From a virus (Duplodnaviria; Caudoviricetes): DNA of 64,000 nucleotides. The stretch is taken from IMG/VR virus record IMGVR_UViG_3300025154_001556; one strand, given 5' to 3'. The stretch's first letter is position 1. The number at the start of each line of letters is the position of its first letter. Shown piece after piece: positions 1 through 52,688 of the stretch. A program made the translations under genes and the position numbers. A model generated the notes under the pieces. The model was not told where the DNA came from, did no database searches, and saw nothing but the letters and a program-made list of their open reading frames with translations.

Positions 1-3000
1 CTGCTGTTTATAGACTTCTTTCATATCTTTTATGGCTTGTTCCACTTTTTTCTTTTCAGCATCAACATCCAATACTTTGGATTTTACTTCTGTTCCTTGA
101 AGTATTTTATCGGTTGTAGCATTTTTAATAGCCTGCTCATTAAGGGTATTAAATATTTTTTGTGCTGATGATGTGTTTTTCTGTATCAAATCCGCTATAA
201 GGGTGGACTCAGCGGCAGATTTTTTAGAAGCTGTTGCTATCTCAGTAAGTTTTTCATTACTTTCGGCTAGATAACCTGCCATAGTAGCCGCAGCTGCTGT
301 GGCTAGTACTTGTGCAGGTCTATTAATGTCTGGGTCTGTTATTGGGCCAGCAACAGCACCGCCTGTGGCGAAAGTTGGTAATTTGCCATATTCATTAATG
401 TAGTCTAGCTTACTTTGACCCAAATGTTTGGCAGAGTCGGCCTTGATTATATATTCACCGTTACTCACCCTAGCTAATATATCGTCTGATGTACCAGTAC
501 CTTCGCCCGCTATTGGACCGCCAGTAGCCATTTTAAAATTAACAGCATCTAATAATTTTTTTAAATCATCTGGTAAATTTAAAGTGGCCTCTTCACCCTT
601 GCCTACTTTAATTTTAGACAAAGTAGTTACAGCTTTATGTACCTCAGGATATTTTTCCTTTAATACATCCAAAGCCATTTCCTCGGACCCTTTAAGTACA
701 TCAGATAACTCAGGGTAATCTTTAAGTATATCATTAACTTTACGTAATAAATCGGCTTTGTTTTTAAGTTCGTCTTTGCTTTCTATCAAACTGTTTTTAA
801 CGGCACCACCAGTAGCAAAACCTGTTAAATCTTCTGGATTATGTGTTTTACTGAATTTATCCAATCTGGCATAACCAGCGCGTCTAGCAGTTGCAGCATC
901 TAGTACATACTCGTCTTTACTTAATTTTGCATTAATACTATCAGAAGTAGGAGTACCTTCACCAAACACTCTGCCGCCATCAGCGAAACCGTACTGTGTT
1001 TTATTTTTTTCATAGTCTTCATAAAAGTTTTTTTCAGCCCGTTTAAGTTTTATGGCCTGTGATAAAGAGGGTGCCTCACCAGTGTTTGCTACACCAGTGG
1101 CTACATCTTTTAACACTTTACCATAATTTTTAGTGGCCTCTGAAAGATCTGTTCCCAATAGTTTACTAAAAACTAATAAAGCAGCATAAGTGGCTACGGT
1201 ACCTGCACCTAGTTTCTTTATAGTGTCGTCCGCAAAGCCAAGACTTTTAGCAAATTCCATAATTGCTGTTTTTGACGCAGTCATAGTAGTAACAGCGCCA
1301 TATAAAGTAGCTTTTGCTGCGGTATCTTCTCTGGATGTAGTAAGTGTTTTTTCTTGTGTTTTTAGGTCTTCTATTAACCCTTTATTTTGATTAACAGCGG
1401 GCTTGGCTTCTTCTGCCGCGAGTTGTGCCCTTAATACTTGAAGCTGTTCATCTAATTTCTTAACTGTTGCGTTTTCGCCAGCTTTTTGAAAAGCGGAAGC
1501 AACACTGGCTGCGGCAGTGGCTTTCATTACAGTTTTATCATCAATAAACTGTGTTTGTTGATTTGCTGTTTGTAATTTATTTATGGCTTCCACATCTGCA
1601 GTGAACGTTGGTTTGTTTGGAACAGTTTTTAAACCAAACCACTTACTTTCTTCTGGTACGACATCCTTCATTTGTGTTACAAAATCACGGAAATCTAGAC
1701 CAGAAAACATTCGTTGAGAAGCTTCTGTTGCTGTGTAGTTTTTAGCACCAAAAACATTCTGGCTACCTATTTCTTTAAGTGTTCTATCTACCCCTAATTG
1801 AGATGTTAAATTTTTAGTCATAACATCTAGAACTTTATTGGCTTCTATCACCATATCGGAATTGCCGGTGGCTGACGCTCTATCGCGCATTTCAGCTACA
1901 CGCTCTAGTCCAGTTAGTAAATCTTGTGGTGAACTAGCAGACATATATTTTTCTAACTGTTTATCAAGTTCCCCTGGACTACCTAAAGCCATTAAAATGT
2001 CTTCAAGCTTAGTAACAGTATCCGCAGTATTAGTAGCTACCCTAGAGGTTTCTATTTTTAATTCAGCGTACCCTGTGTCACCTGTTCTAGCAACAGTTTC
2101 AGTAAAGTTTTGCATTTCGTCCTTAGTTAGCACAGAACCAAAGCCTTTTGATACAGCAGCTATGCTATCAAGTGCCACAAGAGCTTTATCGGAGGAGTAC
2201 ATGCCCTCTGACGCACCTTGTTTTTGTATATCTAATTCTTTTAGTTGAGCGGCTAAGTTTCTGTAATCCTCTGAGCCTATTAAAGTACGTTGTTGAACAG
2301 TCAGGTCTTTATACTTAGGCCCGCCCGTATCAAAAGTGTCTAATCCCTCAGATATACCTTTTAAATAACCTGTGGTGCCTTTAAATACTTCTTGACGGCT
2401 ACGTTCAACAGCTATGTTTTCTTCAATTGCTCTTTTGCCAGATTCAAATGTTTTAGTTAAATCGGCCAATACAGCTCTATATTGCATTACCACTTGATTA
2501 TTTTTTAATATAGTAGTTAGGTTTTCTAACTCTTTATATAAGTCATTAGCTATGGTAACACTGCCTTCATCCAAACCTTCTACTTTTAATTTATCTAAGT
2601 CCTCCATGTAACTTCTAAATTTAATCATAGGTTTAGCGTAATACTCTTCAAAATCTTTTTTCCATGATTTTTGGAATGGAGATTCACCAAAACCTTTGCC
2701 TGTAGAAGCGGTAGGAGTAAACCCTTTACCAGATTGTAGCAGAGTGGTTGTTGCTATGTCACTAAAAAAGCGCTCCCCTAAATCAAATTCCTTTTTGAAA
2801 TCTTTTGCAGATATGGCCCTAATACCCGCGCCGGCGCCGGCTACAAATTCATTAAGTATCTCTATTTTGTCTGTGATCTCATCTTGTATATGATTGGCAG
2901 GAAAGATGTTTTCAACTAATTGCTGCATGTCTTTATCAAAAGCACGCTCTTCCACTTTTAGTGTTTTTGTATTAAAGTATTGTGCAACCCACTCAAATAC

Positions 3001-6000
3001 ACCATCCGAGGTTTCTTTGAGTTTAACTATTGCTTGTTTGCCCGCCATATTATACTTTGCAGCCACGTCATCCATAAATAGTACTATATCGTTATTAAGC
3101 ACTTTACCTTGGCGTTCAAAAAGACCTGCGGACTCTAATTTACCCTTAGTTAATTCTTTTGTAAAATCTAATGATTTAGCAGAGGGCAGGGCACGCTGCA
3201 TAACAGTTTGCCCTAAAACATCCTGCCAATTAATTTTACCTTTAAGGCCGGCTATATTTAGTCTGGGTTCCATGTTAAGTATAACATCATACCCTTCTTT
3301 TAATCTGGGGTCAGCAAATATTTTAGCAATCTCATTTGGATCTAATCCCTTAGTATTAATGTTGCCTAATACATTACTAAATTCCTTATAAGTAGCCGCG
3401 TAATCATTTCTAAGCGCCTTTAATGTCTCTTGATATTTTTTAATATCTTTATCCACAGCAGAAGACATAGGCGATTTTGCTTTTATTGATAGCAAATTGT
3501 TTAACTGTGCGGTTACTTCAGCAATAGCTTTGGCGGGGGCCACTTTAATACCCTTAGCAAGCATTTCTCCTATAATAGGCACCTCACTCGCTATATCTTT
3601 AATCATTTTTTTAGTGTTTTCAGACCCACCTGTTTTGGTTAAATCCTCTATAAATTTGGAAGCCACGTCTACTTCCGATTCCGCCAGTTGTTTAGTTCTG
3701 GATTTATCCAGTACTTTAAAATACTCGTCAAAATTAGTGCTGGCTTTAAGCACCGCATTGCCTACTTTATCATAACCTAACACCAGGTTACTATTAGATT
3801 CTGCTAATTGATTTGCTAAACTTATTACATCTTCTTGTGCTCTACCTAATGTAATTATAGGAGCTTCATAAGTGTTTAAAGATTTTCTACGTTCTTTGGT
3901 GGCGGGATCATTTAATTTATTTAAATCCTCTATTTTGCTTTGTAAAACATCATAGGAAGCCGCCATATTTTTAATATTAGTAAGATTATCTTCTTGAATA
4001 CTACGCATACTATACATAGCATTTGCGTAATCTTGTGCAGATTGAGTCATCCTACCATATTGATCCCCTAGTACTTTTATTGCCGGTACTAATGCTGCTA
4101 TTGTGGTTAGTAATGGGGCAACCGCGGCTATAAAGGAAGTATCGTCCGTAGCTAAATTTTCAGTTAACTTTTTGCCTATATCACCGAGTGAATCACCAAA
4201 ACCTTTTACAGCCATACCTCCTAAATAGGAACCCATACCAGCTACTTCGGCGCCCATGGCCAAACCACCAGAAACTAATTTCTTTAGTGCTTGATGTATA
4301 CCCAGCTCTTTAACTGTTTTTTCTATGTCTTCTTTGGTCATACTATTACGTTTTCTAATAGTTTCAATAGTCTCCCCTATACCAGCGGTACTACTAAGTT
4401 TAGTCCCTACTGTTTTTCCGGCAGCCCCGAATGAGGCTATTCCTTTACCTGTGGTAGAAACACTATCAGCAACAAAACTATTAAATACTTTACCTACTTC
4501 TTGTAGTTTAAAGGACAACCTGCCAAAAGAGGAATGAAAATCTGATAATTTAGTCCCTCTGGTTACGTCAGTCTTTCCGCCACTAGCATCCGTAGTAGTA
4601 AATTTACCTAATGTTTTAAGACCGGCAGTGGCTAATTTACCGCCGCCTAAACCAAATAATTCATATTTAGTTTTAGCTAACTCTTTAGTAAATTGTTCTC
4701 CGGCCCCAGATATACCTAGAAAGTCCTTACCTCCAGCAAGCATGTCACCTAAGGATTCGGCTAGTTGCTGTCCCTTAGTCATATAGGTCAGTAAGGCCAC
4801 AAAAGCAGCGCCGGCCGCTTTGATAGGATCAGGTATAGCAGACAGTGTTTCTAAAAATGTTTTAACTCCACTTAAACCTATTTTAAATGCCGGCAAAGCT
4901 ACTTTACCGATAGACATCTGTAGTTCTACTAAAGCAACTTTGGTTTGTTCGAGCTGTTTTCTATAAGTACCCATTAATTCAGCATTACGTCTTTCTGCGG
5001 AGCCTTTGGAATTCATACTCTCTTTGGTGGCACGTAAAGCTTGATCCCAGTTATCCATTAAAGCTATGAGAGAGTTATATTGTCTGGTACCACCAAGTGC
5101 TTGGGAGGTAGCCAATTTTTGGGCGTTACTAAGGTCTTTCCATTTTTTGCTTAGATCATCTAAAACACTAAAACCAGATCTTAACTGTCCAGTAGATTCC
5201 ATGACAGGAATACCTAATTTACCCAGCTGCTCTGGCCCTTTTTCGGCAGAAAGTCTACGTAAAATAAATCTAAGAGAAGTACCTACTTCTTTACCTGATT
5301 GTCTTGTAGTTGAACCGATAGCGGCAACAATACCATTTAATTGATCAAAAGTAACACCAGCAATTTTGGCTGCCGAGGCGGACTTTTGAATAGCATTGGC
5401 TAAGTCACCAGCAGTAATAGCGCTCTTGGCTTCAACCTCACTCCAAGCATCTAAAAAGCGCATAGCACTATTACCTTCTTCTTGGTAAATTTTCATGGCT
5501 GATGTTAAAGCTTCAGTAGCTTCTGATGCTTTTAATGTAGTAACATTAGCAGCTAAGGTAGATACCTTAGTTCTATCTATTATTTCTGCTTGTGTTAAAC
5601 CTTGCTGTGCAAAAACATTCATAGATTGTAATACATCTGTTATACCAACACCATATTGTTTGGCGAAGGTAACCGCGGCCGCTGATAAACCATTTATATC
5701 AGAAGACAGAGGATTTAACATCATTTTAAGTGTGGCTAAACTATACTCTATTTCAGCTAAGGTACTAATAGCTTGTTTGAGTTGCGCAAAACCTCCGTAC
5801 ACTACGGTAGAAGCAGCACCCCATTTAACAGCACGCCCTATTGCACCTCTAAATCCGCTATTAGATCCTTGCATAGCGGAGGCTAAATCTCTTTCTTTTA
5901 TTGTTATGTCACTTAGTGATTTACCATACTTAGCAAAGTCCACCACAACATTACGAACAACCTGCCCAGTCTGATCCAGAACTTTGATAGGATAAGATCT

Positions 6001-12000: not shown

Positions 12001-15000
12001 ATCTACCGATACTTTTTCTAACTTATTTCTTAAAGCTCCTAAAACCTCAGAGTCTTTATTAGTATTGGCTATTAGGGTCTTTATGTATTCCCAATGTTTT
12101 TTATCGGTATCACTTAGCTGTTCTACAAGTTCTGCTTGACTACCAGCACCCTGAATTGGTGTCTGGTTTATTTCCTTCATCAATTCCGAATCTTTACCAA
12201 AAACATTTAGATAGGCTGTATAAGCTGGGACATTAAGCTTTGCACCTTTTATACGTTTACGCACATCAGTGGTAGACCATGCCTCGGTAGCGGTAGGCTC
12301 CTCCACTACCTGTAAGAATTTTTGACCGACAAGACTCTTACGTTTTTCTCCAAACTCGTCTATAATTTCTGTATAAAAATTAGACATCTCCTCAAGAGCG
12401 GCGCCACGTTTTGCCATTACAGCTGCTTGATCAGACTTCTTACCACGTTGCATAAAGATTTTTGTTAAAGCTTCCTCTGCCTTTCCTGGGTCGGTACCCT
12501 TAAAACCCAAAGCGGAACTGTATGTAGATAAGGATTCTTTACCACTACCGAGTAATTTTTTATACATATCGGGGGCGAACTTATCCCGTAACGTTGTGTA
12601 GGCCTCATCTTTTTCTGATGCTTTTTGGACATTAGCAACGTTATTAAGTATGGTCTCTAATACCTCTGTCTGTAAACCACGTTTACCAGCACCTAAGGAA
12701 CTTATTCTAACATCAATTGGTTTTAGTTCATACAAACCACCTTCTTTAATCATACTACTATATGTTTGTTTCAGGTTATTTATACCATCAACACCATCGG
12801 TTATGGCTATACCAATTGAACTAAATAGCTCCTTGGCTTTATTATAGATATCTTGTTGGACAGAAGCCTCTTCTGGAATAGTTAAACCTGATGTAGCATC
12901 TTTAAAATACTCTATCATAAACTTATTACCAGAGTTTATGAGTTGTGATTTTAGCCCTTCTACTTCTGATTGAGAAGCACCTGCTGCTGTAAGCCCTTCT
13001 ATTTGACTATCTAACAATTCAGCTGCTAACTGCCCCATACTTTTAGGCATTTTGGCAGTACCTAAACCAGCGTTTACCTGCTCTTCACTAGTAAGTACTT
13101 TTATGTTTTTATCACCCCAAGTTTTAAGAATGTCTGACATTTTAGATGTGTCAGTAGAGGTCATAGACACACCCTTCGATCCAAAACGTGTGGTAAACTT
13201 TCTACCAAAGTGATTCATAAAAACTTCGGCAACTTTCGCTGCTTGCACTTCTACATTCTCAGAACGTACTGTTGCCATGGCTTTTTGTACTTCTGTAATA
13301 AAAGCTTTGTCTGCGCGTCCTTTATAGGTATTACTAACTCCTAACATATCCTGAAACTGGCTATATACTTTATTAATAGCCTCAGGAGAATCTACATCTT
13401 TTAACACCCCAGGCTTAACATCTGATACCGCCTCTGTGCCTTTACCCGAACTTAACTCTTTTCCCAGCATCCTACCGCCGGCTGCGGGTAAAACTAATGT
13501 TTTTGTTAAAGAGGTAACAGCATCAGCAAGTTTACCAGATACAAGTATTTGATCTTCAAACGTGCCGGCAGTGTGGCGTAATTCAGCAGTGACGTTAAAA
13601 CCATAACCTTTCTCACCGTAACGGCCACCTTCGATTAAAGATTTTTCACGCTCTGTTCTTAATGTTGGTGTTGTAGTACCAATCCCTTTTACACGGGCTA
13701 CATCAAATTTATCTGTAAGGCCGTTTATTTCATCAATAGAAGAGGACATAGCGTTAGTAACACCCGCTATATTACGTCCTAATTGTTGAAATTCACCAAA
13801 AGGGGCCATGCTTGTTAAGTCATCAACAAACATCTTTATATTAGTTCCACCAAGTGCTTTTAAGTAAGATAGCCCTTCTTCGTAATCTTTATTATCCTCG
13901 TCGGCTCCTCTTACTTTATTAGATTTAAGGTAAGCTATGGAACTAGCCTGAGACTCGGGTATACCTAAGGAGGATAGTTTTCTTCCTTGTGTAGGCAGTT
14001 CTTGTAACCGTTTAACAATAGGACCAGATTCCGGAGATTCTGCCGCCAATTTAGCGAGCATGTCCCTTTCAGCGTACATTTCCTTAAAACGTAGGTTTAA
14101 ATCTTTAATATAATTTTTATGTTCTTCAGGTTTTAATTCATAATCCCTTTCAGTAGGATATAAACCTGGTGTACCTCTGGAAAGAAGATTAACCACATTA
14201 GATTGCTGTAAACCACGACGTGGTTTACCGGGCTCTATTAGCGGCATCAGTTGTTCTACTTGTTTTGTAGCTGATTCAAAGCCCCTGGCACCACTCTGGT
14301 ATGCTGGTTTTTCTACCAACTTTTTTAGCGGGTCTGCTAAGACCTTACCATAGATATCATATATGTTTTTAAATTCTACTTTATCTAAGGCCTTTGCAAA
14401 ATCATATGCTGACACTTGTGCGGTGTTCATCATATTAACAAAAGACATGATCTGCGTTTTAAGATCTTTGTTGGGGTCAAGGGTAAACTGATCTATCTGA
14501 TTAGTAATGTTGGTTAATGCAGGTAATATGTCTAAATCAGGATCTATACGTTTTTTCTGCACCATTTTGGAAACAGTGGCTGCTTTGTACCCTTCTTTGA
14601 TGCCGGAGAATTCTTTAATAACACGTGCATATTCAGTTGATGCAGGTGCACCCTGTTTAAAAGTGCTTATATCAGCTAGCAATTTAGTTACTAAATCTGA
14701 TACAGCATTTTGTTCTAAGCGTGTTTGGGGATTAACACCAATAGTTTGTATTTTAGAAGCATAGTCTTCTTCGCGGCTTAATGTGCCGGCCTGTAGTGCC
14801 TTACTGTACAGCTTTTCCAGCCCTGTTTCAAACATTGCAAATTTAGATAAAGCACGTTCTGAGCCATGAGCGGTTTCCAAAATAGGGGTACCGGAAGGAG
14901 TCATCCTAGCCGCAGGTAGTGCCACATTACGGATATAAGGGGCTGGATGTTCTTTTCTTGTAGTGTCCACATCAGATAAACTTCTGTTGACCTCAGCTAC

Positions 15001-52206: not shown

Positions 52207-52688
52207 TTATAAAAGCTTTACTTCTGTTGCCTGAATACCCTTTTCTGTATTCTTTAAAATAAAACTTACTGGTTGGCCGGCTTTAAGTGTTTTATAGCCG
52301 TCCATATCAATACTTGTAAAGTGGATAAAATACTCTGCGTCTGGATTACCATCAATCAACACAAAGCCGTATCCGCGGTCATTACTAACATTTTTTTCGA
52401 GTTAGTTCGTTACACTAACCCCGCCTATGCAGGCTGCTTTATGTTTCCATAAAGAAAAGACTATATCAAAATCCTGTTAAGGATTCTCCCCATTTCGGAC
52501 CACTTGGTCCTACGAGCCTTCGCTCTAGTCGTTGAACCTTCCTCTTACGAGGCTTGGCTGCTGATTATCTTCGACATTATTCGCTAAGATTTTCCAGCAA
52601 TTAAAGGAGTTTCGATACATTGTTACCAATGTAAAGGGCTCTACATAATGAACCATTTAACTGTTCCGTTAATTCTTTCTTCACTCAT
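52207..52688 (-). CDS. csp: Cold-shock domain protein (72 aa), split by a group I intron: exon 1 52652-52688, exon 2 52207-52388
   Basis: Spliced product MSEERINGTVKWFSNDRGYGFVLIDGNPDAEYFIHFTSIDMDGYKTLKAGQPVSFILKNTEKGIQATEVKLL has RNP1 (RGYGFV) and RNP2 (YFIHFT); exons sum to 219 nt; AAGGAG RBS. Confidence 0.9.
52389..52651 (-). ncRNA. ORF-less group I self-splicing intron (263 nt, IA-type)
   Basis: Core elements AATTGCTGGAAA (P), AATCAGCAG (Q), TTCAACGACTA (R), GATATAGTCT (S); exon 1 ends in U with U-G in P1 (UAAAUGGU/GCCCUUUA); terminal G; P10-like UCAUUA/UAAUGA; P2 UACAUUG-GUAA-CAAUGUA; P7.1 and P7.2 hairpins; P8 AAUCCU/AGGAUU; P9 CUUUAUG-GAAA-CAUAAAG. Confidence 0.9.

Follow-up and report, generated by a model that had tools for sequence, protein, structure and literature searches.

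This study deals with a 64-kb stretch of DNA (64,000 nucleotides; IMG/VR record IMGVR_UViG_3300025154_001556), referred to in its full length as the window, from an uncultured groundwater phage in which csp, the gene of a cold-shock protein (Csp), is interrupted by a group I intron of subgroup IA that contains no open reading frame (ORF). The intron and csp both lie on the minus strand, to which all positions in the window given below refer. With a length of 263 nt and a G+C content of 41%, the intron covers positions 52651-52389, and we consider it a genuine intron and very probably a splicing-competent, selfish mobile element. It is an ordinary IA-type intron in a host gene that has not been reported before in the literature searched. 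An earlier note, made from this DNA sequence alone, had placed an ORF-less intron of 263 nt within the Phe codon of the KWF motif (T|TT), and its coordinates and anatomy were recovered here on the minus strand.

The identity of the element was examined with the Rfam model RF00028, which matched positions 52660-52437 over its complete length (model positions 1-253 of 253) with a score of 88.2 bits and E = 3.5e-21. Since the gathering threshold of the model is 50 bits, this match is far above chance, and the covariance-model search that had been proposed as a check supports the intron. A hidden Markov model (HMM) of the intron family matched 52648-52389. The interrupted csp alleles used for comparison come from uncultured phage contigs in IMG/VR and contain six distinct introns, which reached 76-88 bits when scanned directly, the intron of the window having the highest score. 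One intron only was detected in the 64-kb window by the Rfam and family HMM scans, a count that has to be read with caution because Rfam scans with default settings or a multi-source filter overlooked the introns of three related contigs (L009, L134 and L201) in longer DNA, which scored 76-82 bits once regions of 360-410 nt were scanned alone. An assembly artefact is excluded, since the same DNA is present in L133, an independent contig of metagenomic origin, as well as in 18 runs from groundwater or soil.

The exons on both sides of the intron can be delimited precisely. A Shine-Dalgarno-like AAGGAG, read from the sequence and presumably functional, is located at 52702-52697, 8 nt 5' of the csp start codon ATG at 52688. 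Exon 1 (52688-52652, 37 nt) consists of MSEERINGTVKW and the first base of the Phe codon and ends with AAATGGT, while exon 2 (52388-52207) supplies the last two bases of this codon, 59 further codons and the stop codon TAA at 52209-52207; its frame opens with TTAGTAATGACC directly after the intron end at 52389. When the intron was removed in silico, the joined exons read AAATGGT|TTAGTAATGAC at the DNA level and the predicted spliced product was a Csp of 72 aa, which matched the Pfam CSD profile (PF00313) with 70.3 bits at a cut-off of 27 bits and over 65 of 66 profile positions, and which contains both the RNP1 (RGYGFV) and the RNP2 (YFIHF) motif, as predicted in the earlier note. Translation of the unspliced frame continues with F-I-M and ends at a TAG at intron nt 9-11 (52643-52641), likewise as described there, and this stop codon takes in the first base of the P1 guide strand. 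Phage group I introns are known to carry such in-frame stops shortly after the 5' splice site (PMC3984707). In comparison with two related contigs, the csp codons of the window show 17 synonymous and 2 non-synonymous differences from L001, distributed across both exons, and 13 synonymous and 1 non-synonymous difference from L135. Judged from these codon counts, the spliced csp frame is evidently under purifying selection. The small number of non-synonymous differences argues that csp is in use and hence spliced.

Gene prediction does not reproduce this split gene. The program-called csp ORF in the window has 51 aa only and starts at a GTG in exon 2 (52362-52207), and in L135 a chimeric Csp ORF of 75 aa with a start inside the intron was called (776-1003, minus strand). 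Gene callers thus turn split csp genes into truncated ORFs beginning in the intron or in exon 2, and database proteins for such genes are probably mis-annotated.

The intron family was analysed with Rfam, RNAalifold and nhmmer. For the fold, RNAalifold was given an alignment of five of the six distinct csp introns without any structural information, and it recovered the helices P1, P2, P3, P4, P5, P6, P7.1, P7.2, P8, P9, P9.1 and P9.2. Compensatory changes on both sides were present in at least one of the five sequences for 40 of the 66 predicted pairs. Standard pairs accounted for 94.6% of the cells over 71 pairs, as opposed to 39-46% when the 3' partner was slid by 1-3 columns. The 3' strand of P1 is the internal guide sequence GAGCCCUUU (52641-52633), which pairs with the exon nucleotides AAAUGGU and the first intron nucleotides UC; at the junction, GGU|UC faces GAGCC, and the G at 52639 (intron nt 13) stands opposite the splice-site U at 52652. 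This U.G pair (alignment columns 10/24) is present in 5/5 aligned introns, including an intron at another insertion site, named site B below, with a different guide. The hairpin P2, UACAUUG-GUAA-CAAUGUA (52633-52616), shows compensatory changes in at least one sequence for five of its seven pairs. P3 (52609-52604 with 52491-52486, spanning 52609-52486) encloses P4 (52599-52594 with 52564-52559), P5 (52589-52587 with 52570-52568) and P6 (52558-52549 with 52544-52536), and each of these four helices shows compensatory changes. The pseudoknot helix P7, GACUA/UAGUC (52530-52526 with 52463-52459), was read from the same alignment, and it covaries at columns 190/264, with U-A in three introns and C-G in two. 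Between P7 and the 3' strand of P3, the Rfam alignment places the hairpins P7.1 (52525-52514) and P7.2 (52510-52497), which are kept in every related csp intron with differing sequences. The hairpin P8 (52485-52470) belongs to the consensus fold, and the peripheral hairpins P9 (52454-52437), P9.1 (52434-52423) and P9.2 (52421-52399) all show compensatory changes. The intron ends in AAAAAAUG, in a longer context AAAAAAATG, with its terminal G (omega-G) at 52389. All seven csp alleles have a U before the intron and a G at its end (7/7).

The position of P7.1 and P7.2 between P7 and P3' assigns the intron to subgroup IA, in agreement with the type given in the earlier note. We call it IA2-like, since at the DNA level it is distantly similar to introns from phages of Escherichia, Staphylococcus (Twort-like) and Bacillus (Herelleviridae), which we take to be IA2. 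An intron-encoded homing endonuclease was not found in the 263 nt, in which the longest stop-free stretch in any frame has 44 codons, so that the gene of an endonuclease does not fit in the intron.

P7 is the helix with the guanosine-binding site in group I introns, and the mechanism known for this family suggests the following course of splicing. P1, with its U.G pair at the splice site, would be formed between the guide GAGCCCUUU and the end of exon 1, and an external guanosine bound in P7 would attack after the splice-site U. The terminal G would then take the place of the guanosine, and the exons would be joined as AAAUGGU-UUAGUAAUGAC to give the 72-aa Csp, whereas ribosomes on unspliced RNA would halt at the TAG, short of the ribozyme core.

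In order to place the csp gene of the window in the context of related phages, csp loci were collected from IMG/VR. The neighbours of csp in the window are a lysozyme gene, separated by a gap of 57 nt, and a gene for a zinc-ribbon protein of 227 aa, named here p227. The gene order ClpP, (coiled-coil, Volactin), lysozyme, csp, p227, deoxynucleoside monophosphate kinase is common to a clade of IMG/VR contigs, and the csp loci are therefore positional orthologues. A scan of IMG/VR with a Csp profile gave 283 relatives, the best 80 of which were counted, and a locus was scored as intron-less if the Csp match was unbroken from residue 8 or earlier. Intron-less csp was found at 77 of these 80 loci and split csp at three, so that the intron-less alleles which the earlier note had suggested looking for in related phages are present there. 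In INPHARED, 0/80 records with a Csp relative look split at the three insertion sites described in the following.

Site A is the T|TT position in the Phe codon of KWF and is occupied in the window and the identical contig L133, in L009 (330 nt), in L132 and L136, which share one intron (259 nt), and in L134 (265 nt). Site B (CGT|GGA) lies 14 nt downstream of A and carries an intron of 264 nt in L001 and L135, and site C (GGT|TAC), 17 nt downstream of A, is occupied in L201 (254 nt). The three sites thus fall within 17 nt of the part of csp that codes for RNP1. All alleles but L134 run into an in-frame stop at intron nt 4-11, and removal of the intron restored an intact Csp in 6/7 alleles, the exception again being L134. 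Two peaks of conservation in csp DNA, VKW with 1.45 and YGF with 1.52 bits per base, enclose sites A-C, and the segment that holds them is conserved and functionally critical. The assumption that they fall in the single most conserved stretch of csp was rejected, as the top 21-nt segment corresponds to MDGYK at nt 117-141. A further contig, L131, was rejected as a csp allele, because its host gene is other than csp and was picked up through a chance GFGF match. It contains a related group I intron (2513-3272, plus strand), the 3' exon of which runs into an intein-like (Hint-like) insertion.

The position of the intron also bears on the idea raised in the earlier note of positive feedback or a temperature/GTP switch in which the protein helps to splice its own mRNA. 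As a regulatory switch, this explanation holds that Csps of the phage or the host melt the intron RNA, so that Csp output would be set by temperature, GTP or Csp level through positive or negative feedback, and that csp acquired such an autoregulatory ribozyme gate repeatedly. The premises of this idea are found in the literature: Csps have RNA-chaperone and nucleic-acid-melting activity (PMC3017892), and StpA, S12 and IF1 aid the splicing of T4 introns (PMC3984707). In the review of Csps as RNA chaperones, Csp-assisted group I splicing is not reported (PMC3017892). In line with a switch, csp was invaded repeatedly and at three sites, and the intron begins 37 nt from the start codon with a stop that overlaps the P1 guide by one base; a ribosome terminating on unspliced RNA would therefore probably sit on P1, and translation and P1 folding probably compete. 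However, the intron is absent from 77/80 of the best related csp loci, near-identical phages have different introns at different sites, and a conserved target sequence would explain repeated invasion equally well. Moreover, the nearest introns are found in genes for ribonucleotide reductase, terminase and a capsid-like protein, and nothing csp-specific is visible in these introns. The comparative data thus speak against a dedicated switch, an explanation that we do not favour and regard as very unlikely.

The origin of the csp introns was analysed with nhmmer and a tree of 45 introns over 259 columns constructed with FastTree, for which the sample was picked by a core-motif pattern. More than 113 IMG/VR stretches match the intron core motif, and it is paired with csp only in the contigs with split alleles. 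The site-C intron nests with the site-A introns of L132 and L134 (support 0.989), and the site-B intron groups with introns of a capsid-like gene and of terminase genes (0.93, 0.90 and 0.99 at successive nodes). The intron of the window is as near to one in a ribonucleotide reductase gene (L033) as it is to the other csp introns at site A. According to these groupings, at least two lineages from a common pool of phage introns entered csp, and one of them is found at two sites, A and C, which share the short P1 target GGU. We also considered the introns at sites A and B as a single lineage hopping over 14 nt; this was rejected, the site-B intron being nearer to the capsid-like and terminase introns.

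Evidence of a recent transfer comes from L135, a near-twin of the phage of the window with 96.3% identity in the 3' end of the lysozyme gene and 97.1% in p227. L001 is more distant, with 69.6% and 93.7% identity to the window in the same regions. The site-B introns of L135 and L001 are identical (264/264), while the flanks of these two contigs are 68-94% identical. At the informative sites of coding-sequence nt 19-72, around the insertion sites, L135 matches L001 in 13 of 14 cases, and in the flanks it matches the window at 119 of 135 sites (Fisher p = 5e-10 for the contrast between tract and flanks). This tract fits the pattern expected of an intron transfer with co-conversion of the flanking exon, and co-conversion of flanking markers has been described for the homing of phage group I introns (PMC3984707). 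Signs of a mobile intron are therefore present in the patchy distribution among orthologues, the near-identical copies in diverged backgrounds and the co-conversion tract. We interpret the element as selfish because it is patchily present, because a near-twin phage carries a different intron, and because its relatives reside in ribonucleotide reductase, terminase and capsid-like genes.

Lacking an endonuclease gene, the intron would need other means to move. L135 has an insertion between lysozyme gene and csp, an ORF of 292 aa with a C-terminal HNH motif (1281-2159, minus strand), and the spacer 5' of csp is replaced; at this position, the window has the 57-nt spacer only. L134 contains a C-terminal HNH fragment directly upstream of csp at the contig end, and a further HNH gene follows three genes downstream. 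Overall, matches to HNH families within about 900 nt upstream of csp were found at about ten distinct, mostly intron-less loci, and the clearest of them end 110-370 nt before csp. No HNH gene adjoins csp in L001, which lacks the HNH gene of the L135 type despite the identical intron. In the window itself, an ORF of 268 aa lies between the terminase and portal regions (45369-44563), and the HNH protein of L135 shows 38% identity to it over about 65 aa in tblastn (44769-44575); on this basis, it may encode an HNH endonuclease, either free-standing or associated with packaging. Collaborative or trans homing of ORF-less introns by free-standing endonucleases is known in phages (PMC3984707; PMC2790892), and the placement of the HNH genes would fit such a process.

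We infer that related introns entered csp where it codes for RNP1, at three sites no more than 17 nt apart, and spread among related phages through recombination. Their mobility would most likely depend on endonucleases acting in trans, for which the HNH genes near csp in relatives are candidates, or on homologous recombination in co-infection. Reverse splicing, or ectopic cleavage at a second GGU, may have brought the lineage from site A to site C. The relation between these sites, with one lineage and the same GGU, resembles the related introns at two sites that have been cited as circumstantial evidence for reverse splicing (PMC3984707).

The HNH genes may also be given a more specific role, in which intron and endonuclease form a device for immunity or competition. 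Free-standing HNH endonucleases would cut intron-less csp near RNP1, and the intron would destroy the cleavage site, protect its carrier and enter the cut genomes in co-infection, possibly as a form of interference between co-infecting phages. Such a device would agree with the HNH gene directly upstream of csp in L135 (site B) and the HNH fragment at the contig end of L134 (site A), with the HNH-family matches upstream of csp in many intron-less relatives, with the clustering of the insertion sites in 17 nt and with the conversion tract around the L135 intron. Precedents are collaborative homing (PMC3984707), trans homing by mobE (PMC2790892) and an intron endonuclease used in phage competition (PMC11620839). 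However, the introns of the window and L001 have no adjoining HNH gene, the HNH gene of L135 is absent from L001 although the intron is identical, and intron-less csp beside an HNH gene would need another form of resistance. The scores of the HNH domains are below threshold. We therefore regard the device as unlikely, though worth considering, and retain the selfish intron as the best explanation of the data.

Several observations weigh against a selfish intron that splices and moves, and they concern its surroundings, its relatives and its RNA. The HNH domains remained under the Pfam cut-offs (18.6-21.2 bits), with HH...N...CxxC...H motifs visible. No endonuclease gene adjoins csp in the window, where the gap to the lysozyme gene is 57 nt, and none lies in the intron. 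HNH genes are also found beside intron-less csp, so that the link between HNH gene and intron may be coincidental. The placement of the window's intron in the tree is weakly supported (0.74), in a tree of 259 columns from a motif-picked sample. By inspection, P10 is weak and consists of two pairs, a mismatch and three pairs. In L134 (12643-12699, minus strand; 12728-12808), exon 1 is either degenerate or not in the frame of exon 2: the in-frame part is ATGTGCCACTGGT only, and a longer upstream frame with ATG reads MSEKIKLLVYADTPSCATG. This csp may be a rearranged or decaying gene, or the result of an assembly error, and some intron copies may accordingly sit in decaying genes. The phage was found in none of the listed RNA runs. 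In four wastewater complementary DNA (cDNA) runs searched at 80% likeness, no contig bridged the intron, the coverage came from the conserved core of many unrelated introns, and a single short piece of unspliced appearance extended over exon 1 and the spacer before it. A spliced junction was thus not shown in the listed RNA runs and the four wastewater cDNA runs, a coverage that speaks neither for nor against splicing.

The state of L134 and the lack of a spliced product in the RNA searched could also point to a dead intron, in which case the ribozyme would not splice and csp would be a pseudogene in the phage of the window. In this phage, however, the core helices, the start codon, the Shine-Dalgarno sequence, the U.G pair and the terminal G are all intact, the Rfam score of 88.2 bits is the top score of the set, and both exons share in the ratio of 17 synonymous to 2 non-synonymous codon differences from L001. 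A dead intron in the window is thus extremely improbable.

Among deposited phages, the nearest introns by sequence belong to Herelleviridae (Bacillus phage vB_BceH_LBC2, Staphylococcus Silviavirus, Twort-like). The csp intron of the window resembles the IA2 introns of tailed phages, such as td, nrdB and nrdD of T4, in its Rfam family, in a core with P7.1/P7.2 and P9 extensions that shows about 68-73% identity over about 200 nt, in its location in a phage protein gene and in the in-frame stop just within the intron. It differs from them in its host gene, csp instead of a gene for DNA metabolism, terminase or structural proteins, and in its compact form of 263 nt without an ORF; in addition, its carrier is an uncultured groundwater phage without a close deposited relative. 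The orf142 gene of Staphylococcus phage Twort contains three introns. In both this gene and the ribosomal DNA with introns at two sites (PMC3984707), related introns occupy different nearby positions of one gene, as in csp, where one lineage occupies two sites with the short P1 target GGU. In contrast to these genes, the csp sites are only 14-17 nt apart and occupied by one intron per phage, an allele with two introns never being seen among the split alleles.

With regard to mobility, the closest parallels considered are the psbA intron of cyanophage S-PM2 with the endonuclease F-CphI and the T4 nrdB intron with mobE (PMC3984707; PMC2790892; PMC6083498). These systems share with csp an ORF-less intron in a conserved coding stretch, a free-standing HNH gene beside the target gene, which for csp is found in relatives, a co-conversion tract and a patchy distribution. 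They differ in that the csp of the window has no adjoining endonuclease gene and that HNH genes are also present beside intron-less csp. Jug phages, jumbo phages of the gut, contain about 18 small group I introns (about 206 nt) per genome and many stand-alone HNH genes, and metatranscriptome reads backed splicing for 37 of 76 predicted introns (PMC12880540). Small ORF-less introns, stand-alone HNH endonucleases and split essential genes are common to both cases. In contrast to Jug phages, one intron only was found in the 64-kb window, and the hosts named in the main text of the Jug study are terL, nrdD and DNA polymerase, not csp (PMC12880540).

The window as a whole belongs to a divergent tailed phage and consists of one array of minus-strand genes, among them those for terminase, portal, major head protein, PhoH, ClpP, a Volactin-family actin and a GH24-type lysozyme. 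No match for it was found by megablast against deposited phages. One open frame of more than 5,900 codons occupies positions 17766-1 and runs off the window end, representing a giant phage protein. Upstream of lysozyme and csp, the genes for ClpP (Pfam 240 bits), a coiled-coil protein of 324 aa and the Volactin-family actin (209.7 bits) stand in a row (55839-53236). Their order is kept in L001, and in several related contigs csp has homologues of Volactin and ClpP on its flanks. A stem-loop AAGACC-8 nt-GGTCTT followed by T (52180-52161) is located after the csp stop, ahead of the Shine-Dalgarno sequence of p227; it is kept with changes in L001 and could be a weak terminator or a hairpin for processing or stability.

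As the earlier note had suspected, csp is new as a host gene in so far as it is absent from the host genes listed in the literature searched, in which no csp-hosted group I intron was found; the text of a 2025 intron database paper (PMC11835236) gives no list of host genes. The intron thus adds the gene of a non-enzymatic RNA-binding protein to the short list of phage group I intron hosts. The csp alleles provide a compact natural series for the movement of ORF-less introns, with three sites in 17 nt, at least two lineages and HNH genes beside the target, and it includes the case of two diverged phages with identical introns, where a conversion tract can be seen. If it were true, feedback by a chaperone would be a new kind of ribozyme-based autoregulation.

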